DNA of 64,000 bases, taken from NCBI GenBank assembly GCA_026415135.1, contig JAOAHS010000006.1, positions 29,779 to 93,778 of the forward strand, read 5' to 3'. This DNA is from Calditerrivibrio sp. (GTDB taxonomy: Bacteria; Chrysiogenota; Deferribacteres; Deferribacterales; Calditerrivibrionaceae). This document shows, in pieces, positions 22,258 to 56,718 of this stretch. A program made the position numbers and the translations under genes. The notes under the pieces were generated by a model. The model had not been told where the DNA came from. It saw nothing but the letters and a program-made list of their open reading frames with translations, and searched no databases. How positions within the stretch are numbered: position 1 is the stretch's first letter; every line of letters starts with the position of its first letter.

Positions 22258-22830
22258 ATGCTGGAGAAAGTTAACACCCTTTCAGGTCTAATTAAATATC
22301 CTAACCCAGATTCTGAGCAACTTATTTTATTAGACATTTTAGGTTATACTGTGAATATAATGGATAAAGACTTAAATATTTTATACTGTAATTGGAAGGA
22401 TCTTGATTTTATACCTATAGGAAGACGTCTTTTGGGGGAAAAGTGTTATAGGGTTATTAGGGGACGTGATACAATTTGTGAAGATTGTTTTGTTAGTAAA
22501 TATCATAGGTATCAGTCTATTATAAAATTTATTAAGAAGAGTCCAGTTGATGGAAAGTACAGGGAGTTTAATATTTTAATAATAAGGGATAGGGAAGATA
22601 TTTTGGGTTATATTCAGCTTATAAAAGTTTGTACAGAATTTATAGAATATCAAAAATTAAATTTGAAGCCAATTTCCATCTGCTCCAAATGCAAAAAAAT
22701 AAGGGATAATGAGAATTGGATGTATTTTGAAAATTATTTTCAAAAAGTAGGTATCATGTTTAGCCACGGGATCTGTTCAGATTGTTTTAAGGATTTATAT
22801 CCTCAATATGTTGATAAGATTAAGAGATAA
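22258..22830 (+). CDS. Cysteine-motif PAS-like sensor domain protein with C-terminal CxxC-x27-CxxC zinc-ribbon-like tail (190 aa)
   Basis: PAS-like core with KCYRVIRGRDTICEDC (same motif as PAS domains at 47.6 and 48.6 kb); C-terminal ICSKCKKIRDNENW...FSHGICSDC. Confidence 0.5.
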   Translation: MLEKVNTLSGLIKYPNPDSEQLILLDILGYTVNIMDKDLNILYCNWKDLDFIPIGRRLLGEKCYRVIRGRDTICEDCFVSKYHRYQSIIKFIKKSPVDGKYREFNILIIRDREDILGYIQLIKVCTEFIEYQKLNLKPISICSKCKKIRDNENWMYFENYFQKVGIMFSHGICSDCFKDLYPQYVDKIKR

Positions 22831-47572: not shown

Positions 47573-48526
47573 TTAGATTATTGCAAGTCTATTTCTACCT
47601 TCTTTTTTGGAGATATAAAGAGCATGATCGGCTGCATTTAAGTTGTGATCAATGCTTATGGGTTTTAATTTCGTGGCACCAATTGATATTGTATAACTGA
47701 TAAATCGATTATCGTTTATTTCGACAATAGATCTTTCGATATTTTTTCTAAAGTTTTCAAATATTTTTCTTGCATCATTTTCATTGACATTTATTAGGAT
47801 AATGGCAAACTCTTCACCACCTATTCTACCGACAATATCACTTTTCCTGAGTTCTGTTGTTAGTTTGCCAGCCAAGTGTTTGAGTATTATGTCTCCATTT
47901 ATGTGACCATAAGTGTCGTTTATAGCTTTAAAATGATCTATGTCAATTATACCTAAAAAACAGTCTGTTTCATACCTATTGATCTGATCAATAATTTTTT
48001 GGCCAATCTCATAGAAAAATCTTCTATTATATAGACCTGTGAGATAATCCTTTTCCGCAATATCCTTCATTTTTGCGTACATCTCTTGTAATTCTTTGTT
48101 TTTACTTTCAAGCTCTTTTGATTGTAAATAAAGATTAGCATGGGCTTCTGCAAGTTCGTTTTGAATCTTTTTGGCTTCAGTGATATCTATTCCAATTGTA
48201 TATTTTACCAATCTACCATCTGGCCAATACATCATACATTCATCAAGTCTATACCATTTATCTTTTAGTTCACTGAAGCATTCGTGACTAATTCTTTCGT
48301 TTATCTTTTTATTTTCTATTAGATATTTTATCTTACAATGTGGACATACATTCTGAAAACCAAAAATCTTTTCGTAACACTTGACATTGTTATTATAAGA
48401 AAACTCTTCCCAGAATAATTGGTTACCATATATAACTTGATACTCATTGACATCAATAACATAGACTACAAAGGGTATCATATCAAACAGTCTTTCAAAT
48501 ATACTGTTTTCAACTATAGTACTCAT
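47573..48526 (-). CDS. PAS (Cys-motif) + GGDEF diguanylate cyclase
   Basis: N-terminal PAS with KCYEKIFGFQNVCPHCK; coiled linker; GGDEF domain with RIGGEEFAI active site. Confidence 0.8.
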   Translation of the reverse strand: MSTIVENSIFERLFDMIPFVVYVIDVNEYQVIYGNQLFWEEFSYNNNVKCYEKIFGFQNVCPHCKIKYLIENKKINERISHECFSELKDKWYRLDECMMYWPDGRLVKYTIGIDITEAKKIQNELAEAHANLYLQSKELESKNKELQEMYAKMKDIAEKDYLTGLYNRRFFYEIGQKIIDQINRYETDCFLGIIDIDHFKAINDTYGHINGDIILKHLAGKLTTELRKSDIVGRIGGEEFAIILINVNENDARKIFENFRKNIERSIVEINDNRFISYTISIGATKLKPISIDHNLNAADHALYISKKEGRNRLAII

Positions 48527-49689
48527 TTAAAGCTCCTTTTTATTGGCAAAAATAAATCTACAGTAGTTCCAATATCCAATTGGGAGCTGATCTCTATAAA
48601 GCCATCATGTTGGCTAATTATGCCAAAAGATTCTGAAAGTCCAAGTCCAAAAGCATTTCTATAATCTTTAGTTGTAAAAAAAGGATCTTGAACTTTATCA
48701 ACATATTCATCTTTTATACCAAAGCCATGATCTGTAATAGATATTTTTATAAAATCAGAGTCTTTTACCTTTACATGTTTACATGTGATCTCAATATCAC
48801 CACCGTTTGGCATCGATTCCATAGAATTTTTTACTATATTATCTAAACATGAACTAAATAGTTCCAAATCCAATGATAATTTTATATTTAAGACAGAATC
48901 GATGTTAAGATGAAAGTTGTATATTTTGTCTGATGTGGCCTGTTTTGTTTTTACATAATTAGTAAGAAAGCGGGAGATGTCAATGTCATGTAGGTTCAAT
49001 ATAGCTTTTTGGCTAAACTTAATGATTCCCTGAATAATCTTTGTGGCTTTTGATACGGAATCTTTTATTATTTCCATTTCTTTTTTAAGTTCTGGATAGA
49101 TCTGATTTTTACTTAACTTATCTGAAATTATTAATAGTGGAGTATTAATATTGTTTAAGTGATGAGCCAAACCGCTTGAAAGGTTAACCAAAGATCGTAG
49201 CTTTTCCAAAGCTATATCTTTCTTTTTTGATTCTTCAAGTTGAAATAAAAGATTTTTTAATTCTTTATTATTTTCTTCTATCTTTTTACTTTTCAATAAA
49301 AGTTCTGCATGTGATTCAGAGAGCTTATTTTGTGTAAATTTTAACTCCGTGATATCCACGCATATACTATATTTTACAAGTTTACCATTGGGCCAGAAAA
49401 TAGATTTTTCTTCTATTCTATACCATTTATCTTCAAGTTCATTAAAATTATCAAAAATAACCGTATTCCCTTTAGGTTTTCTATTCTCAATCAATTCGGT
49501 GATTTTACAAAATATACATGGAGAATCATTGCCATAAATGATATTGTAACATTTTTTTCCTTCATAGTTTTCAAATCTTTTTTTGAAATAGTCGTTCATG
49601 TAGATGATATCCAGCGTATCAACATCAGTGACATAAACCCCAAAGGGTAGCATATCAAAAAGTGTTTCAAATATCCTCATCTCATTCAT
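48523..49689 (-). CDS. PAS (Cys-motif) + histidine kinase (HisKA-like + HATPase_c)
   Basis: PAS with KCYNIIYGNDSPCIFCK (paralogous to the PAS at 47573-48526); H box GLAHHLNNINTPL; HATPase G boxes (DHGFGI, GLGLS). Confidence 0.8.
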   Translation of the reverse strand: MNEMRIFETLFDMLPFGVYVTDVDTLDIIYMNDYFKKRFENYEGKKCYNIIYGNDSPCIFCKITELIENRKPKGNTVIFDNFNELEDKWYRIEEKSIFWPNGKLVKYSICVDITELKFTQNKLSESHAELLLKSKKIEENNKELKNLLFQLEESKKKDIALEKLRSLVNLSSGLAHHLNNINTPLLIISDKLSKNQIYPELKKEMEIIKDSVSKATKIIQGIIKFSQKAILNLHDIDISRFLTNYVKTKQATSDKIYNFHLNIDSVLNIKLSLDLELFSSCLDNIVKNSMESMPNGGDIEITCKHVKVKDSDFIKISITDHGFGIKDEYVDKVQDPFFTTKDYRNAFGLGLSESFGIISQHDGFIEISSQLDIGTTVDLFLPIKRSFK

Positions 49690-50071
49690 ATACTTTATTT
49701 GAAGTATTTGATAGAATTTTACTTATTGATTTAGCAATTTTTTCCTCATCAAAAGGTTTTAAAACATATCCAGATGCTCCGGCTTCAATAGCTTTTACGA
49801 TCATCTGTTCTTGACCATGAGATGTTATCATCAAAATAGGCACCGTAGGTGATTTTTCCCTAATCTTTATAGTTGCTTCTATGCCGTCTATATCAGGCAT
49901 TGTAATATCCATGCTTACAAAATCTATCTCCTCAGGATTAAATTTTTCTATTGCTTCTTTTCCTGTCCTTGCAGTTGCTACTACTGTGTGACCCAATGAT
50001 TCAAATATTTGAGTCAGTTTTTTGATGATAATCAGGGAATCATCTGCAATCAATACCCTTAAATTACTCAT
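49682..50071 (-). CDS. CheY-like single-domain response regulator
   Basis: LIADDS acidic pocket, phospho-acceptor D in VSMDITMPDIDG, T/K (YVLKPF). Confidence 0.85.
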   Translation of the reverse strand: MSNLRVLIADDSLIIIKKLTQIFESLGHTVVATARTGKEAIEKFNPEEIDFVSMDITMPDIDGIEATIKIREKSPTVPILMITSHGQEQMIVKAIEAGASGYVLKPFDEEKIAKSISKILSNTSNKVYE

Positions 50072-50561
50072 TTATTCCTCCGTTTTGTTTATCTTGGATT
50101 ATTAGATATATGTTTATGTTACCATCTGTTGTGGAGATCATAGAATGATAATACTTTGAATCTTTCTTGTTTAGAATACTTTTGGCTTCATTGACTATCA
50201 ATGGAGGCGAAAAAGATAGAAGTGAATCGTTAATTTCTAAAGATTTTGTAGAGTTCCCCAAAACTATATTCATGACTTCACATGCAGATTCTGCATAAAG
50301 CTCATCTTTTTCATCATCTTTCACATCTAACTCTTTGGTAAATTGATAAAATATCTTATCAAGAATTGCTTTCTCGTAACTAAAAACAACTATTGCTGTT
50401 ATATGACCTTTGATAGACATTATAGATGTTAGATAGTTTAAATTAATTTTTGGAACATCTTTTAGATATATTTTTTTGCTTATAGGATTTAATGAAAGAT
50501 CTTTTTCAATGAAATCAATACATTTTTCCGTTATAATATCAATGATTTTCTTATACTCCAT
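50064..50561 (-). CDS. CheX/CheC-family-like phosphatase
   Basis: SACEVMNIVLGN matches the S/D-x-x-E-x-x-N-x-x-x-G CheC/X active-site pattern; 165 aa; sits between kinase and CheY. Confidence 0.5.
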   Translation of the reverse strand: MEYKKIIDIITEKCIDFIEKDLSLNPISKKIYLKDVPKINLNYLTSIMSIKGHITAIVVFSYEKAILDKIFYQFTKELDVKDDEKDELYAESACEVMNIVLGNSTKSLEINDSLLSFSPPLIVNEAKSILNKKDSKYYHSMISTTDGNINIYLIIQDKQNGGINE

Positions 50562-50564
50562 ATT

Positions 50565-53048
50565 TTACTCCTCATAAGGTATTTTAACCAAAACCTCTGT
50601 ACCTAAATCTTTTTCAGATATAACTTCTATTTTTCCACCTATCTTTTCAATTTCAAACTTAACTGCTGATAAACCAACTCCCCTACCCTTATAAATATCA
50701 GCTTCTTTAATTGAAGTATAACCTTCTAAAAATATTTTTTCAAGTTCTTCTTGGTCTATTCCTTTGCCATCATCTGTTATCTTAATAATCAAATAATTCT
50801 CTGATTTTGAAATTCTTACAGTCACATTACCTACCTCACTCTTGCCTTTCGCTTCTCTAACTTGAGGTGTTTCTATCCCATGTATGACTGCATTGGTGAA
50901 AATGTGATATAAAGAGCTAAGGCATTTGAAGTAATCAGGTATATATATTTGTATATTATCCTTACATTCTATATCAAAACGCACTAATTTCCCTTCCCTT
51001 TCAGATACCCTTTCCACTAATTTTCTGAAATTATCAAAATAGGACAGTAAATTTATTTTAAGAAAGTTTTTAATCTCTTTGTGTAAGGGGTTATGCTCTA
51101 TTTTTAACCTATTAGCTAAAATAGTAAGTCTCTCTTCAGATATTCGAACAAAATTCTCATCAACAAAATCTTTTTCTAAATATTTTCGTAGAATATCCAT
51201 GTCTTTTTTTAGTGAAGCAAAAAGTGAATCCACAAACTTTTCTCTATTGCTTAATGCATATTCTAAGTTTTCTTCAAAAATATGGATTAGCTCTGGTAGA
51301 TTTATAAAACCTTTTTGCAAAAAATTGCCTTTAAAAGTGTGCAACTCTTTTTTAATGATGTTTAAAGGATACAGATGGATGTTTAAAATGAAATCTTTAA
51401 ATTCTTTTATCAATTCTTTTGTTACATATTCATCTTTTACATATTCTACAACAAATTTTAACATTTTTCTTTCATTTTCAAGCTGTTTTTCTAACATCTT
51501 TTCATCTGTTATATCCTTCATTATTAAGATAATGTTTTTGTCCTTTGAAAGTTTATAGGTTAACTGATAGGTTTTATCTAAGATATCTACCTGTGGAGGC
51601 AAAAGTTCCAACATTGTTTCTTTTAAGAAGGTATTTTCTTGTTGAAATACTGATTTTAAGAGATTTCTAATGTTTTGTTGTTTTGTTTTATCTTCAGGAA
51701 ACAGAAGTTCTACTATATCAACACCGGCTATATCTTTCCCAAATATCTCTTTACATACGGATGAGTATTCTTTATCTATTTTATAATCACTACCGAATTT
51801 CAAAAACCCCTCTCCTGAACTATCAAGAAGTGTAGATATTTTATCTTTACTTATTGCTAATTCTTTTGTTCTGTCAGCTACTTTGATCTCAAGGTCCTCC
51901 ACATGCTCTTTAATTTTCGCTGACATTAAATTAAAAATATTTGTCAACTCACCAATTTCATCATTTTGATTGTATTCTATTTTTGTATCGTAATTACCCT
52001 CTTTTATTCTATTAGCTGAAACAGCAATGGTTTTAATGGGGTTTATAAGCATCCTCTGAACAATATAACCAAAAGCCACAATCAATATAACCATTAATAA
52101 AAAGACAGAAATGATTGGTAATAATAACTGTTGTATATTCAATATCTTATCTATGTTTATTGCTGTTAGAATTACCCATTTCAACTCAGGGATATGACTT
52201 ATTGCCACCATATATTCGTTACCTAAAAGATTGACCTTAAATATATCCACAAGGTTGTTTGATTGTAATAGGTTTGAAATTCTGTTTTTGAGGATTTCTT
52301 TGCCTTTTTCGTTAGATATGTCAAATATTGTTGTTTGCTTTTTACTTTTATCAACTATTCTCAGATTCATGAGGGACTTATCCTTCGAAGCAAAAATGGT
52401 TCCATCCTCCTGTAATATAAATTGAATAGTACCCTCTTCAGTTTTTTCTATAAATTCATTTACAAAATCAGTTATTTCTATTCCTGTACCGATAACCCCT
52501 CTTAAAATACCATCATCTATCATGACAACATTTATCCACAAATTTGTTTTTCCGACTTCTTTATCGAAATCGACATTTAGGGTGTATAGAGTAGGCTGCT
52601 TAATTGTTATAAAATACCAAATATCATCTTTGTTTTCAGGGTTTAGTGTTTTAATAATTTTAGCCACTCCACCAGATTTTTCATCGGAGTAGTAATAATT
52701 CAAACTATTATTTATTACAAAAAAAGCCGATTTCGATGTAAAATGTTTTCTAAAGTTTTCAAATTCTTGAAGAGCAAGATCTTTGTATAGTATATTTTCT
52801 TCGTGTTTTCCCCAAAGAGTTAGTATTTTAGAGTTACTCATCAATCTTGATATGGTAAGTTCCTTGTTTAATATACCACTGATCCGTTCTTTTTGATATA
52901 AAACTGAAGTTTTAGCATATTTTTCTGCTAAATTTTCTACAACTATTGTATAGATCTTTTTCCAGAACATGTACGCAGATGTAAGAATGATAATGATACC
53001 TATTATTAGCGCCATCTTCATTTTAAAGCTTATAGAGTTAAATGTCAT
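50565..53048 (-). CDS. Transmembrane sensor kinase with HPt-type phosphorylation site (CheA-like, no HisKA/DHp): TM-Cache-like-TM-HAMP-PAS-like-HPt-HATPase_c
   Basis: Two TMs flank a ~285-aa periplasmic domain; HAMP after TM2; HPt-like KELHTFKGNF; C-terminal HATPase (HIFTNAVIHG, ITDDGKGI, GRGVGLS); no H-box of HisKA type found by eye. Confidence 0.65.
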   Translation of the reverse strand: MTFNSISFKMKMALIIGIIIILTSAYMFWKKIYTIVVENLAEKYAKTSVLYQKERISGILNKELTISRLMSNSKILTLWGKHEENILYKDLALQEFENFRKHFTSKSAFFVINNSLNYYYSDEKSGGVAKIIKTLNPENKDDIWYFITIKQPTLYTLNVDFDKEVGKTNLWINVVMIDDGILRGVIGTGIEITDFVNEFIEKTEEGTIQFILQEDGTIFASKDKSLMNLRIVDKSKKQTTIFDISNEKGKEILKNRISNLLQSNNLVDIFKVNLLGNEYMVAISHIPELKWVILTAINIDKILNIQQLLLPIISVFLLMVILIVAFGYIVQRMLINPIKTIAVSANRIKEGNYDTKIEYNQNDEIGELTNIFNLMSAKIKEHVEDLEIKVADRTKELAISKDKISTLLDSSGEGFLKFGSDYKIDKEYSSVCKEIFGKDIAGVDIVELLFPEDKTKQQNIRNLLKSVFQQENTFLKETMLELLPPQVDILDKTYQLTYKLSKDKNIILIMKDITDEKMLEKQLENERKMLKFVVEYVKDEYVTKELIKEFKDFILNIHLYPLNIIKKELHTFKGNFLQKGFINLPELIHIFEENLEYALSNREKFVDSLFASLKKDMDILRKYLEKDFVDENFVRISEERLTILANRLKIEHNPLHKEIKNFLKINLLSYFDNFRKLVERVSEREGKLVRFDIECKDNIQIYIPDYFKCLSSLYHIFTNAVIHGIETPQVREAKGKSEVGNVTVRISKSENYLIIKITDDGKGIDQEELEKIFLEGYTSIKEADIYKGRGVGLSAVKFEIEKIGGKIEVISEKDLGTEVLVKIPYEE

Positions 53049-53065
53049 ATTTATCCTATAATCAA

Positions 53066-53671
53066 CTATTTTATTATGATCTCTACCCTTCTGTTTTTGG
53101 GTTCGGAAGTTTCATCTGGTAGGGGTATTAATGGATCATCTTCTCCATGGGATAAGATTTCTATAGGTGTTGTTTCCAAAACACCAGAGCTTAAAATAAT
53201 ATGTTTTACAGACTCAGCTCTTTTTAGGCCTAAATTATAGTTTACCTCTTTAGAACCTAAACTATCGGTGTGACCTATTATCAGAATTTCTGGATCTTTT
53301 CTTGATTTAATCTCTTTCAAAAGATCTTGAACATTGGCAAGGCTTTCTTCAGTAAGATTGTCACTGCCTGCAAGAAAATATAAAAGGAAGGATTTTGGTT
53401 TGAGAGGCTCCATATTTAGCAGATTTGAATATCTTTTTGAAAACTCTTCATCAGACATTAAGGTAGGTTCAGATATTTTATCTTTATCTATTGTTACAAA
53501 ATATTTATTTTTATCTATGACAACTTCACCTTTTTCCGTTTTAACATATACCTTTCCTACCTTTCCATCTTCATCTGCCATAAGGCATACAAGATCTTTT
53601 TTTTCGATCTTAAAAGAGCCGATAGCCAAAACAACAGCAGTTGTCAAAACAAAAAGTGTAAAGGGTGTCAT
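53066..53671 (-). CDS. OmpA C-terminal-domain (peptidoglycan-associating) protein with N-terminal TM anchor
   Basis: IIGHTDSLGSKEVNYNLGLKRAESVKHIIL...NRRVEIII OmpA/MotB-like motif. Confidence 0.7.
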   Translation of the reverse strand: MTPFTLFVLTTAVVLAIGSFKIEKKDLVCLMADEDGKVGKVYVKTEKGEVVIDKNKYFVTIDKDKISEPTLMSDEEFSKRYSNLLNMEPLKPKSFLLYFLAGSDNLTEESLANVQDLLKEIKSRKDPEILIIGHTDSLGSKEVNYNLGLKRAESVKHIILSSGVLETTPIEILSHGEDDPLIPLPDETSEPKNRRVEIIIK

Positions 53672-54099
53672 TGGCTTGCCTCCACAATAAACTTAGTTCC
53701 TTTTACTCCAACTACAGCTGAAGATGTTTTTATTCCTACATTATTGGCTGCTATCTTTGGTATTTTCCCAGAGTTAAAAAGTATTTTTCCAGTTTTAAGC
53801 TCCCCTTTTAATTCATAGGTAGATTTCTTAGGATCATATTGATAAGCTTGGACAATATAATGAGTGTTTTCGTCAAGAGTTATCATTGTGTTATCTTTAA
53901 AAACTATACCACAACCTGATTTGTTTTTTGTAATTATTTGATCTTTGTTTAGAATATTAAAACCTAACTTGACATCGAGTTCTTTGTTATCCCTTAAAAC
54001 AATGACATTGCCATTAATGTTCCTAACTTTTCCAATTGTTTCTGAAAAAGATGGGATAGTAAAGACTAAGAAGAGAAAAAGAGTTATAAATATTCTCAT
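53668..54099 (-). CDS. Secreted FecR-domain-like protein (143 aa)
   Basis: Signal peptide; beta-rich G/V/K pattern reminiscent of FecR/anti-sigma sensor domain; SD AAAGGGGTG; begins 19 nt after tRNA-Pro 3' end. Confidence 0.45.
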   Translation of the reverse strand: MRIFITLFLFLVFTIPSFSETIGKVRNINGNVIVLRDNKELDVKLGFNILNKDQIITKNKSGCGIVFKDNTMITLDENTHYIVQAYQYDPKKSTYELKGELKTGKILFNSGKIPKIAANNVGIKTSSAVVGVKGTKFIVEASQ

Positions 54100-54118
54100 A
54101 AGGCACCCCTTTTAAAAA

Positions 54119-54192
54119 TCGGGGCGACTGGATTTGAACCAGCGACCACACCCACCCCAAAGGTGTACGCTACCAGGCTGCGCCACGCCCCG
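54119..54192 (-). tRNA. tRNA-Pro (anticodon GGG)
   Basis: Revcomp CGGGGCG-TG-GCGC-AGCCTGGTA-GCGT-A-CACCT-TTGGGGT-GGGTG-TGGTC-GCTGG-TTCAAAT-CCAGT-CGCCCCG-A; anticodon loop UUGGGGU gives GGG with G37. Confidence 0.8.
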
Positions 54193-54200
54193 ATAACAAA

Positions 54201-54229
54201 TTTATAATACAAAAATTCAGATTTGGCAA
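54201..54229 (-). promoter_or_regulatory. Sigma70-like promoter for tRNA-Pro(GGG): TTGCCA-17-TATAAA
   Basis: Minus-strand TTGCCA (revcomp 54224-54229), 17-nt spacer, TATAAA (revcomp 54201-54206), 8 nt before tRNA 5' end. Confidence 0.4.
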
Positions 54230-54254
54230 GACTAAATGAGTTTTTTATAAAAGC

Positions 54255-54282
54255 CAGGGTTCTTATTTATAAAGAACCCTGA
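54255..54282 (-). terminator. Perfect 12-13-bp palindromic hairpin after the lipoprotein gene stop (putative terminator)
   Basis: CAGGGTTCTTTAT-tt-ATAAAGAACCCTG immediately 3' of the stop at 54289; followed on minus strand by GCUUUUAUAAAAAA. Confidence 0.4.
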
Positions 54283-54288
54283 CAGTAT

Positions 54289-55398
54289 TTATCTTAGTTT
54301 TTCTATCACTATCCTGAAGTTATCAAACTTTTTAAGTTCATATTTATTTAAGTTTTTTATGGCATTTGCAAGGTAAATAGTTTTTTCCGGATATTCTACA
54401 ACAACTTTGTCAACACCCCTGTCATTAACGTTTAAAACCCAGCTTATATACTGGAGATCATTTTTTAACTCTAAAAGTTTATTTAAATCGTTATTACCTG
54501 CTAAAACTATTTCTACAGTTCTTTTGTTTTGTCCTTTGATCTTTTCAACCACAGTGGAGATAAGCTCGTTGGAAACATTTGATGCTAAATTTTCCAGCAT
54601 ATTGTGAGTAGCGTCTTCAGGGGTTGGTCCCTGCCCTCTTCCAGAAACATATCCACTTGCTACAACTATTTTTTGGCCATTTTTATCACCGATAAGTCTG
54701 TAGGTCAATCTACCTGTAACCACATTGAAAGGTAAGGAAACACCATAACCTATGTTTTTACCCTGTTGTGCCGATAATGTTGTTTCTACTTTTCCTATCA
54801 GGATAGCGCCCGACATAAACTGATAAGCCACATTTCTAAATGCGCTATAGTTATTGTTTTTTAATGCACTATCAATCTCCATAAGGGAATATTTACTACC
54901 TAAAGAAGCTATATCCACTACATCAAGCCCTTGAGCAGATAGCTCATTTATCACCTTTTCTGACAATGCAGTGGTTTCATCGACTTTGTTATTGGGAAAA
55001 ATAACAGGTATATAGACTGCTACAGATGTATTTTTAGCAAAGATACTTACAGCTTTTGCTGCTTCTGCTGGTGAAATATCTGCTGATATCTTGACCCAGT
55101 AAAGGTCTTTATCTTTACCTTCATCAATGATTTTATATTTGTCTACAACTCCTTTAACCTCTGACTTGATTGCTTCGTCCACCAACTGGGCATTTTGAAC
55201 TATTGTCTCCACTTTTACCTGAACACCTGCAGCAGCTTCCAAAGCAGCCCATTTTGCTCTTGCAATAGCTTGAAATTTTGCTGCAGCTATGTCACCATTG
55301 ACAATATTTGCTTCGCCAGTAGCTGTAACAGTTTTGGCAAAAGCAGAAAAGCCTAAAGATAGCACCATTAAAAACACTAGCAAATATCTTTTCATCAT
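54289..55398 (-). CDS. Secreted/lipoprotein-like protein (putative CsgG-partner; LPP20/FlgP-like Ala-rich N-domain)
   Basis: Start at MMKRY (SD GAGAGGTG); signal peptide; N-domain KTVTATGEA...AAAKFQAIARAKWAALEAAAGVQV; no confident family. Confidence 0.5.
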   Translation of the reverse strand: MMKRYLLVFLMVLSLGFSAFAKTVTATGEANIVNGDIAAAKFQAIARAKWAALEAAAGVQVKVETIVQNAQLVDEAIKSEVKGVVDKYKIIDEGKDKDLYWVKISADISPAEAAKAVSIFAKNTSVAVYIPVIFPNNKVDETTALSEKVINELSAQGLDVVDIASLGSKYSLMEIDSALKNNNYSAFRNVAYQFMSGAILIGKVETTLSAQQGKNIGYGVSLPFNVVTGRLTYRLIGDKNGQKIVVASGYVSGRGQGPTPEDATHNMLENLASNVSNELISTVVEKIKGQNKRTVEIVLAGNNDLNKLLELKNDLQYISWVLNVNDRGVDKVVVEYPEKTIYLANAIKNLNKYELKKFDNFRIVIEKLR

Positions 55399-55410
55399 AC
55401 ACCTCTCAAA

Positions 55411-55440
55411 CAAAAAAGGGGGATACCCCCCTTATATTTT
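55411..55440 (-). terminator. Intrinsic terminator after the CsgG-like gene
   Basis: Minus-strand GGGGGG-uau-CCCCCC hairpin followed by UUUUUUGUUUG. Confidence 0.6.
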
Positions 55441-56642
55441 TAAAACAGTTTTTTCATGAACCCTTGCCCTTCAAGAGGAGCTCTTTTAACTAATGTACCG
55501 ACTTTTAATCTTTTAATGTTTTCAGGTTTACCTTCTATCTTTACCCATGCAGAATTTTCATCCACTTGGTTTGAGACGATTATATCAACATCTATTTTTG
55601 TTTTTTGACAATTCATCTTTTTTGTCATGAAATCCTGTATTTCCATAAATTCATATGCTTCAATTTTGTTACCAGGTTGAATTCCATCGGCTTTACCCAA
55701 ACTTACAAGAGCAACCTGCTTGCCACCACGAAGTTGATTTATATATGCTTTCGCTCCAAAAAGATCAGAAAACTCTGGTTTAATATCATCTACAGACTCA
55801 CCAAATGCTTTTTTAGCAGCGTTAACAACCAATTCTGGATTAAACGCAGGTTGTTCACCTGCAAGCTCCCTACCTTTTACCTTTTTACTCAATACAAGCT
55901 GTCCAGTAGAGGCATCGATCAACTGAACAGTCATCTCGGTATTAACATTCCAACCAACTGTTGCTGCATCAACAGCTGCTTTTGTGGCAGCTAAAGCTAA
56001 ATTGACCCATACATTACCGGTGTTTGTATCATTTTTGGTTCTCTGAACATAATGAGCTTTTATTAGGTCAACAGTACCTGTTATTATGTAATCAACACCT
56101 GAAATCTTACCAAATTTAGTAACTGTGTTAGGATCTGCCATGTTCATCTGAAAACCTTGTTCCTGAAGAACTTTCCCCACCTGTTGTCTAGTGAAGACCT
56201 GTACACCACCTATTTTCATTATGGCATCTTCAACTGCTGACTGGGCATATTGCCCTAAATTAGGAGCTATTTCACGGTAAAATGTATTGATATCTGCTGA
56301 GTATTTGTGATCCTTTTGGGTAACTCCTGCATAGCCCACACCAGCTGCACCAGGCCCAACAACAACTCCTGCAACACCAGCAGATTTTGTAGTAGTCTGA
56401 GATTGGCCTTGAATTTGAGTATTTACAGCCTTCATATCACCATAGCCTGTGTTATTTGCAAAATCAACTACTGCAACTTTGTACTTTTTCCCTTGATATT
56501 GTGCTTCACATATCTTAGGAACCTGAACCTGCTCCTGATCAGCTGGAGTAATTTGCATTGCACCAGGATCCAATTTTGGTGGTTGTGCACAAGCAAAGAG
56601 AAATACTACAGCTAAGACACTTAGATATTTAAAAAACCTCAT
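55440..56642 (-). CDS. CsgG/HfaB-family outer-membrane lipoprotein (secretion-pore family)
   Basis: Start at MRFFKY (SD GGAGGGA 5 nt upstream); lipobox LFAC; KVAVVDFANNTGYGDM, FTRQQVGKVLQEQGF, VDYIITGTVDLIKA parallel E. coli CsgG motifs (KIFVSVYNIQDETG, LERQGLQNLLNE, IMVEGSIIGYE). Confidence 0.65.
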   Translation of the reverse strand: MRFFKYLSVLAVVFLFACAQPPKLDPGAMQITPADQEQVQVPKICEAQYQGKKYKVAVVDFANNTGYGDMKAVNTQIQGQSQTTTKSAGVAGVVVGPGAAGVGYAGVTQKDHKYSADINTFYREIAPNLGQYAQSAVEDAIMKIGGVQVFTRQQVGKVLQEQGFQMNMADPNTVTKFGKISGVDYIITGTVDLIKAHYVQRTKNDTNTGNVWVNLALAATKAAVDAATVGWNVNTEMTVQLIDASTGQLVLSKKVKGRELAGEQPAFNPELVVNAAKKAFGESVDDIKPEFSDLFGAKAYINQLRGGKQVALVSLGKADGIQPGNKIEAYEFMEIQDFMTKKMNCQKTKIDVDIIVSNQVDENSAWVKIEGKPENIKRLKVGTLVKRAPLEGQGFMKKLF

Positions 56643-56718
56643 AAATCCCTCCATAGTTTTTTGTATTTTAATTATAACAGGTAAATATGAAAAATCAAAT
56701 AAATTTTAAAAAAATTTT

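Follow-up and report, generated by a model that had tools for sequence, protein, structure and literature searches.

A very large, unnamed PAS subfamily with a conserved cysteine triad and a putative metal site, seen from three proteins of Calditerrivibrio sp.

What is sensed by a PAS domain that carries three invariant cysteines? This question is raised by a stretch of 64,000 nucleotides from Calditerrivibrio sp. (contig JAOAHS010000006.1; GC content 33.8%), called here the window, in which one cysteine-bearing PAS module recurs in a histidine kinase, in the diguanylate cyclase encoded next to it and in a more distant protein of 190 amino acids (aa). PAS domains are the commonest intracellular sensors, and most of them have no known ligand. 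We find that the module belongs to a very large PAS subfamily that is unnamed in both Pfam and NCBIfam. Its cysteine triad, its place in the PAS fold, its outputs and its hosts are described below, and they lead us to favor, tentatively, an iron-sulfur (Fe-S) cluster as the cofactor.

The three open reading frames (ORFs) from which the original prediction started, together with the strings that it quoted, are all found in the ORF listing of the window. The histidine kinase (388 aa, 48523..49689 on the minus strand) is cytoplasmic, has matches in Pfam and NCBIfam, and is made of the Cys-triad PAS domain (aa 1-125, 49315..49689 on the minus strand), a coiled-coil linker (aa ~116-160), a DHp domain and a HATPase_c domain (aa 279-384). 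The diguanylate cyclase (317 aa, 47573..48526 on the minus strand) has its own Cys-triad PAS domain at aa 1-127, followed by a coiled coil and by the GGDEF domain (aa 159-313). In the 190-aa protein (22258..22830 on the plus strand), the Cys-triad PAS domain covers aa ~20-130; this protein is identical in sequence to the NCBI entry N3C60_01400, from a metagenome-assembled genome of Calditerrivibrio sp. All three share the pattern C-x10-C-x2-C inside K-C-Y-x2-[IV]-x-G-x4-C-x2-C, which reads KCYNIIYGNDSPCIFCK in the kinase (Cys47, Cys58 and Cys61, encoded within 49507-49551), KCYEKIFGFQNVCPHCK in the GGDEF protein (Cys50, Cys61 and Cys64, within 48335-48379) and KCYRVIRGRDTICEDC in the 190-aa protein (Cys63, Cys74 and Cys77, within 22444-22488). 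When the whole window was scanned in six frames with the regular expression C[YFW]xx[ILVM]xGx(3-5)CxxC, these three sites were returned and no further copy was found.

The relationship between the three copies is not uniform. The N-termini of the kinase and of the cyclase are 47% identical over 156 aa, including the helical linker (E = 7e-48), so that the "obvious paralogues" of the original prediction can be kept for this pair. The 190-aa protein stands further away (36% identity over 59 aa, BLASTP E = 4e-5), and for it the term should be replaced by that of distant family member. It nevertheless carries the same core, as had been claimed: a family profile hidden Markov model (HMM), built without any window protein, scores it at 40.1 bits with its three cysteines in register, and scores the kinase at 150.5 and the cyclase at 124.6 bits. 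Given these HMM and pairwise scores, the similarity of the three proteins is far beyond chance, and all of them are members of a C-x10/11-C-x2-C PAS subfamily.

An exhaustive HMM profile search of 1.84 billion representative proteins gives the size of this subfamily: 8,763 proteins at E<=1e-3 and 2,637 at E<=1e-10, many of them with two to six copies of the domain. Searches started from a single sequence see very little of it, as a word-indexed homologue search returned three close relatives only and phmmer found nothing relevant in the PDB. The arrangement C-x(8-14)-C-xx-C is present in 238 of the 252 domains of the 150 best proteins, with ten residues between the first two cysteines in 184 of them and eleven in 48. 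Across the 278 domain hits of the profile alignment, Cys makes up 99, 93 and 99% of the three columns. They are the sole invariant columns in 37 diverse domains whose mean column identity is 35%, and in 85 full-length proteins they share this status with Asn32 only. The expectation that the triad would define a conserved subfamily is thus borne out, with thousands of members. Other positions are conserved to a lesser extent: an aromatic residue (Tyr, Trp or His) after Cys1, a Gly at +6 from Cys1, a Pro before Cys2, an aromatic residue before Cys3, several Trp and Tyr on the sheet and the terminal D-I-T-E-x-K. The profile columns of the 278 hits contain no fourth conserved Cys or His, which fits a Cys3 site whose remaining position is open or exchangeable; the best protein candidate for that position is an Asp or Glu present in about 50% of cases three residues before Cys2. 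Neither a specific NCBIfam or Pfam model nor a solved structure was found for the triad motif, and literature searches by motif text and keywords returned no description of it.

A variation on this arrangement is seen in sister PAS copies of multi-PAS proteins (P0032, P0110, P0113, P0148, P0106, P0108 and P0118), which keep the first cysteine and in which P-C-x-x-C gives way to related Cys/His patterns, C-x4-H-x8-C-P-H among them. The site seems to take a Cys2His2 form in these copies, which is relevant to the choice between zinc and Fe-S.

The outputs of the family are diverse. Among the 85 top family proteins, HATPase_c is present in 46, HisKA in 35, REC in 20, GGDEF in 14 and Hpt in 6, together with single cases of HD-GYP, SpoIIE, STAS, GerE and PilZ. 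Since it is fused to many output types, hybrid kinases among them, the Cys-triad PAS is a general input module, often present in tandem copies. The two adjacent proteins of the window illustrate this well. The kinase has a HATPase_c domain (Pfam, 56 bits) and AtoS/CckA-like DHp and catalytic regions (NCBIfam alignment over aa 161-385), while the Pfam HisKA model has no match in it; His176, in the H-box AHHLNN, is the probable phospho-acceptor as read from the sequence. The product of 48523-49689 thus has the DHp histidine and the HATPase_c domain of a two-component histidine kinase. The cyclase has a GGDEF domain (PF00990, 127 bits; TIGR00254, 152 bits) with an intact GGEEF and an RxxD I-site (RKSD), both readable in RKSDIVGRIGGEEF, as is expected of a GGDEF cyclase. 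Both products look functional, and their linkers read LSESHAELLLKSKKIEENNKEL in the kinase and LAEAHANLYLQSKELESKNKEL in the cyclase. That one input module serves both a kinase and a cyclase, as had been proposed, agrees with the presence of these two domains behind the Cys-triad PAS.

To what extent is this module a genuine PAS domain, and where do its cysteines lie? Pfam gives only weak and generic PAS matches in this region of the kinase (PAS_8, 22 bits; PAS_9, 20.6 bits). The AlphaFold2 model of kinase aa 1-125, computed with a 37-sequence alignment, is a confident PAS fold (pLDDT 95.8), with a five-stranded antiparallel sheet (strands 17-22, 27-31, 76-83, 88-98 and 104-112), helices at 33-38, 47-50 and 63-66, and similarity to solved PAS domains. 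In this model Cys47 opens E-alpha, and Cys58 and Cys61 stand 5 and 2 residues before a short F-alpha of 4 residues only, at the end of a loop (51-62) modelled at pLDDT 96-97. The model of the 190-aa protein (pLDDT 75) has the complete PAS strand pattern, with Cys63 opening helix 63-68 and with Cys74 and Cys77 preceding helix 78-81. The cysteine segment, as modelled, is thus the part of PAS domains that contacts the cofactor, that is, the pocket lid.

We then come to the sensors to which such a lid can be compared. A whole-domain profile search of the PDB gives YtvA-LOV as the best match (E = 4e-7), and 9WEX ranks seventh with E = 7.6e-4. As in LOV domains (YtvA, PpSB1-LOV and others), Cys1 falls on the position of the photo-cysteine (GKNC-RFLQG against G.KCY..LQG), and LOV domains are also the best Foldseek matches, though with a TM-score of only 0.64-0.67. 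The resemblance has its limits, since in the Cys-triad domains the flavin residues are not kept, F-alpha is much shorter and there are two extra invariant cysteines.

The entry 9WEX holds the 1.52-A structure of the PAS domain from Bacillus licheniformis NreB, in which a [2Fe-2S] cluster is bound by Cys63, Cys66 and Cys78 in the motif CX2CX11C, and in which the fourth ligand is a labile, non-protein sulfur; the NreB of Staphylococcus carnosus has CX2CX11CX2C and a [4Fe-4S] cluster (PMC13478379). NreB and our kinase are both sensor kinases with a cytoplasmic N-terminal PAS domain whose cysteines lie between B-beta and a short F-alpha, and in B. licheniformis NreB only three cysteines bind the cluster, the fourth ligand being exogenous and labile. 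No homology can be detected in the cysteine segment, as the 9WEX match needs the N-terminal part of the profile: it is lost at E<=1 once the profile starts at residue 32 (the N-terminal 31 residues being removed), and the motif-region profile alone finds no PAS chain in the PDB at E<=10. Compared by secondary-structure register only, the two sites do correspond: the NreB ligands are 16, 13 and 1 residues before alpha2 (79-82), and the cysteines of the kinase are 16, 5 and 2 residues before helix 63-66. Moreover, the order is reversed with respect to NreB, with a single Cys first and then CxxC (x10 or x11, then x2), so that the window proteins have neither the NreB-type motif nor a homologous cysteine segment. 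The kinase is also AtoS/CckA-like and not of the HisKA_3 (DesK-like) type that the data section of the NreB paper implies, and the Cys-triad family is larger than that of NreB by orders of magnitude and centered on anaerobes.

Two other sensors invite comparison. OrpR (DVU2106) of Desulfovibrio vulgaris has C52, C61 and C65 in its PAS domain, which are proposed to hold a redox-sensitive [4Fe-4S] cluster, and its triple Cys-to-Ser mutant is blind to redox (PMC8359166). As in OrpR, the kinase has three conserved cysteines at near-equal residue numbers of an N-terminal PAS domain (47, 58 and 61), a possible Asp or Glu as fourth ligand and an anaerobic host; redox sensing by OrpR was shown both genetically and spectroscopically (PMC8359166). 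OrpR differs, going by its published description, in its spacing (C-x8-C-x3-C) and in its output, a sigma54 enhancer-binding ATPase, a combination that none of the window proteins has. It is reported to be restricted to Orp-containing Deltaproteobacteria (PMC8359166), and Sigma54_activat is absent from the 25 domain families listed, of 28, in the 85 top family members. AirS (YhcS) of Staphylococcus aureus has in its N-terminal sensor domain a [2Fe-2S] cluster that controls the kinase activity (PMC8774646). The candidate Fe-S site of our kinase lies likewise in the N-terminal sensor domain. The AirS motif is reportedly C-x7-CxxC-x17-C, that is, a single Cys and then CxxC as here; by this motif AirS would have a fourth conserved cysteine and another spacing, and S. 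aureus is a facultative aerobe. A [2Fe-2S] cluster is also bound by C-C-x10-C-x2-C in Escherichia coli FhuF, in an unrelated fold. In the PAS classification of Xing et al., cysteine motifs are given only for LOV, PYP and nine NreB-like domains (PMC10468136). Taken together with these sensors, the Cys-triad PAS is best classed with the known kind of cysteine-ligated metallo-PAS sensors.

The hosts of the family were approached by back-translating K-C-Y-x4-G-x3-P-C-x-F-C into a DNA pattern with which species-representative genomes were scanned. At least 120 loci matched and, among the matches listed, all 120 lie inside PAS domains that match the family profile. About 110 of these 120 come from obligately anaerobic lineages as judged by record title, a raw share, uncorrected for the proportion of anaerobes in the genome collection, and about 10 are of uncertain physiology; no classic aerobe genus is found among the 120. 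The anaerobes listed are many Clostridia, Negativicutes, Desulfovibrionaceae and other Thermodesulfobacteriota, Methanolobus, Bathyarchaeia, Treponema, Sphaerochaeta, Cloacimonadota, Caldatribacterium, Deferribacterales and Gordonibacter. Deferribacteres, to which the window belongs, are themselves anaerobic.

We favor an Fe-S cluster held by the three cysteines and by a fourth ligand that would be non-conserved or exogenous, because there are three invariant thiolates in the PAS lid and no conserved fourth protein ligand, and because the hosts are biased toward anaerobes and two independent Cys3 Fe-S PAS domains are already known. We hold this reading tentatively and give it somewhat less than an even chance. 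The fold, the conservation of the triad and its place in the secondary structure, the outputs and the bias of the hosts toward anaerobes are observed, whereas that a metal is bound, which cofactor it is, what is sensed and how the signal travels are inferred. The thiolates of the triad would bind the cofactor in the lid of the PAS pocket, with Cys1 at the N-terminus of E-alpha and the other two cysteines making a CxxC knuckle just before F-alpha. Oxidation, loss or ligand exchange of the cluster, in response to oxygen (O2), redox potential, nitric oxide (NO) or sulfide, would alter the E-alpha/F-alpha lid, and this change would reach the coiled-coil linker by way of the last strand, at its conserved DITE.K end, as in PAS signalling generally. 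Autophosphorylation of the kinase, and phosphotransfer from it to the CheY-like regulator whose gene lies just upstream, would be switched in this way, as would the synthesis of cyclic di-GMP (c-di-GMP) by the cyclase; in the 190-aa protein the change would act on a C-terminal module with four cysteines (Cys4).

Several points weigh against an Fe-S cluster. The order and spacing of the motif differ from those of NreB, OrpR and AirS, and the cysteine segment has no sequence homology to NreB. The related PAS copies with C-x4-H-x8-C-P-H have a Cys2His2 pattern that is more typical of zinc, and where the profile matches a protein up to six times, many clusters would be required. The bias toward anaerobes itself comes from one strict sub-motif and from a scan of unspecified order. 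In addition, NF047497, the family of the Leptospira kinase LIC_12097, matches aa 36-370 of the kinase and aa 24-96 of the 190-aa protein, and it resembles the whole Cys-PAS kinase architecture, at a sub-threshold score of 82 bits for a cut-off of 500. This family comes from an aerobe and is similar across the Cys-PAS region, so that if LIC_12097 keeps the triad, the subfamily would have a member in an aerobic spirochaete and the argument drawn from anaerobes only would be weakened. The Fe-S site is putative in every member, and the convergence of the three thiols is likewise a prediction.

The competing readings have to be weighed on the same features of the site. Zinc is a credible though rather unlikely occupant: the triad and a variable fourth ligand (Asp or Glu, His or water) would bind Zn(II), either as a structural clamp on the E-alpha/F-alpha lid or as a "redox zinc switch" from which the metal is released by oxidants. 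A CxxC knuckle before a helix with a distant Cys is a classic zinc geometry, loop 51-62 is modelled with very high confidence, the sister copies have their Cys2His2 pattern, weak Pfam matches to zinc-ribbon and RING models fall on the motif (E = 0.06-0.1), and tandem repeats of the domain are easier to fill with Zn than with Fe-S clusters. A zinc-regulated cytoplasmic PAS domain does exist in WalK, which is cited in PMC10468136. Structural zinc, however, normally has four conserved protein ligands where three are conserved here, and a purely structural role would leave the strong anaerobe bias unexplained. As for WalK, its site is said to be made of His, Asp and Glu, and not of Cys. In another reading no metal is involved: the CxxC that precedes the helix would be a redox pair like that of thioredoxin, with the third cysteine as a resolving or relay thiol, and oxidants or the thiol/disulfide poise would toggle the domain in the manner of the cysteine switches of ArcB or PpsR, which are known PAS redox switches. 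A distribution biased toward anaerobes fits the sensing of oxidants. CxxC before a helix is indeed the arrangement of thioredoxin and DsbA, and the cyclase has C-P-H-C. The near-absolute invariance of three cysteines over thousands of diverged domains and the conserved Gly and Pro of the 10-residue spacer are nevertheless more typical of metal ligation, and the known thiol-switch PAS domains rely on one or two poorly conserved cysteines, which makes this reading unlikely in our opinion.

Three invariant thiolates without a conserved fourth ligand also recall a trigonal S3 site, as this is the hallmark of such sites in ArsR/ArsD, MerR and PbrR, and the domain would then sense soft metals or metalloids, for example As(III), Cu(I), Hg(II), Pb(II) or Cd(II), directly rather than through a cofactor. 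The family is, however, too large, too often tandem and present in too many copies per genome for a sensor of toxic metals, and no resistance genes are found nearby, the neighbors being Che-like signalling and envelope genes; we regard this as the least probable of the readings. Hardly more probable is an organic cofactor, either haem b with one Cys as its axial ligand, or a chromophore, such as a flavin, that forms an adduct at the LOV-equivalent cysteine. It would account for the alignment of Cys1 with the LOV adduct Cys, for the LOV domains being the best sequence and Foldseek matches, and for the conserved aromatic residues on the sheet (W/F at profile positions 83, 93, 94 and 103). The flavin ligands of LOV are not kept, though (the Asn and Arg flanking the Cys, the Arg of F-alpha and the Asn of the sheet), and there is no conserved F-alpha His, in a helix of 4 residues in the model. 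LOV-type flavin binding is specifically unlikely because the flavin-contacting Asn, Arg and Gln are not conserved: only the Gly, the Cys and partly the Gln/Gly of GXNCRFLQG are common, and the kinase reads GKKCYNIIYG. A haem PAS of the FixL/DOS type is also unlikely, there being no conserved His in profile columns 60-70. As for c-type haem, it is unlikely as well because CxxC is followed by Lys or Phe, and not by His, in the window proteins, and because no signal peptide is visible in their N-terminal domains. The preference of the original prediction for a metal, Fe-S or redox-disulfide sensor over a flavin or haem PAS is therefore supported in what it rejected, as the LOV and haem signature residues are missing, and stays putative as to the metal.

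A much bolder extension of the Fe-S reading can be formulated, which we consider doubtful and quite unlikely as a whole. The Cys-triad PAS would be the dominant cytoplasmic three-Cys Fe-S sensor with an open site in anaerobic bacteria and archaea, filed until now as generic PAS_4/PAS_9, and its thousands of diverged domains would couple O2, redox, NO or sulfide, at an exchangeable ligand of the cluster, to two-component and c-di-GMP signalling. In sequence, no other domain would stand closer to LOV, the first metal-ligating Cys of the triad would be homologous to the photo-cysteine, and the reactive Cys of LOV would perhaps be inherited from a metal-binding ancestor.

How would such an input be connected to the signalling of the host? 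The kinase and the cyclase close a minus-strand series of head-to-tail genes, in the order CsgG-like, FlgT_N, FecR-domain, OmpA-family, 827-aa sensor, CheX, CheY-like, Cys-PAS kinase and Cys-PAS cyclase. The envelope block of this series (CsgG-like lipoprotein, FlgT_N, FecR-domain and OmpA-family proteins) occupies 53066-56654 on the minus strand. It is followed, on the same strand, by the 827-aa membrane sensor fused to a CheA-type kinase (50565..53048; HAMP, 41.5 bits; HATPase_c, 63 bits), by a CheX-type phosphatase of CheY-P (50064..50561; CheX, 33 bits, above the cut-off) and by a CheY-like single-domain response regulator of 129 aa (49682..50071; Response_reg, 113 bits). The 827-aa sensor contains a Cache-like region, a HAMP domain, an Hpt(P1)-like segment (HTFKGN) and a CheA P4-type ATPase; phmmer matches it in the PDB to CheA P4 domains (E = 3e-20) and to CheA P1 (2ld6, E = 0.008). 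No methyl-accepting chemotaxis protein or CheW was found among the cluster genes checked, and this sensor, CheX and the CheY-like regulator form a receptor-CheA fusion pathway. Stop and start codons overlap at 50064-50071 (CheX/regulator), at 49682-49689 (regulator/kinase, 8 nucleotides) and at 48523-48526 (kinase/cyclase), where the TGA of the kinase overlaps the ATG of the cyclase (ATGA) behind an AAGGAG ribosome-binding site. These overlaps and the AAGGAG argue for translational coupling within one operon, for which a promoter and terminator scan gave nothing above shuffled expectation. The 129-aa regulator is the likely phospho-acceptor of the Cys-PAS kinase. Through this partnership, the kinase would add an intracellular redox or metal input to a CheY-like regulator that is otherwise served by the CheA-like sensor, and the cyclase would turn the same input into c-di-GMP.

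The same gene order is found in the related genome GCA_964519265.1, where the position of the kinase is occupied by a 164-aa protein made of the Cys-PAS and the coiled coil only. Such kinase-less homologues (P0001-P0003, 164-166 aa; L001 6001-6495, also L002-L004) are ~70% identical to the N-terminus of the kinase. Because a PAS-coiled-coil protein stands at the kinase position, the kinase domains must have been gained or lost between close relatives; we speculate that the PAS-coiled-coil unit may act by pairing with the paralogous PAS-coiled-coil of the cyclase. The envelope block is syntenic with the signalling genes in the related genome (L001 1-2620), which means that the whole nine-gene cluster is conserved.

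The 190-aa protein has a second cysteine-bearing part, which the original prediction had missed. It is the C-terminal Cys4 module of about 45 aa (aa ~140-186, nucleotides ~22675-22815 on the plus strand), with the sequence CSKCKKIRDNENW...SHGICSDC and, in part, ICSKCKKIRDNENW...FSHGICSDCFKDLY. Elsewhere, it is found at protein ends with the consensus LPICSKCKKIRDDKGxW..xExY..HS..F[ST]HGICxxC..LY, behind REC domains (P0175 and P0177), an ordinary PAS domain (P0176), a probable membrane domain as judged from sequence (P0174) and an unassigned domain (P0173). The module is covered by no model of Pfam or NCBIfam, and no paper was found by its motif text (CKKIRD...HGICxxC). It resembles a zinc ribbon and is probably an unnamed output domain of signalling proteins.

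Cysteine-ligated Fe-S PAS domains are represented so far by a few narrow examples only, namely NreB, AirS and OrpR. With a sharply defined Cys-triad subfamily of thousands of diverged members, many "orphan" signalling proteins would gain a ligand hypothesis that can be tested. The subfamily is spread over Clostridia (with many gut assemblies), sulfate reducers, methanogens, Bathyarchaeia, spirochaetes and Deferribacteres, and it is wired to kinases, c-di-GMP enzymes and phosphatases. At the locus of the window, if the hypothesis is true, it would mean that a redox input enters both a Che-like phosphorelay and a translationally coupled diguanylate cyclase. In the family as a whole, it could explain how strict anaerobes route redox and oxygen information into their decisions on biofilm and motility.

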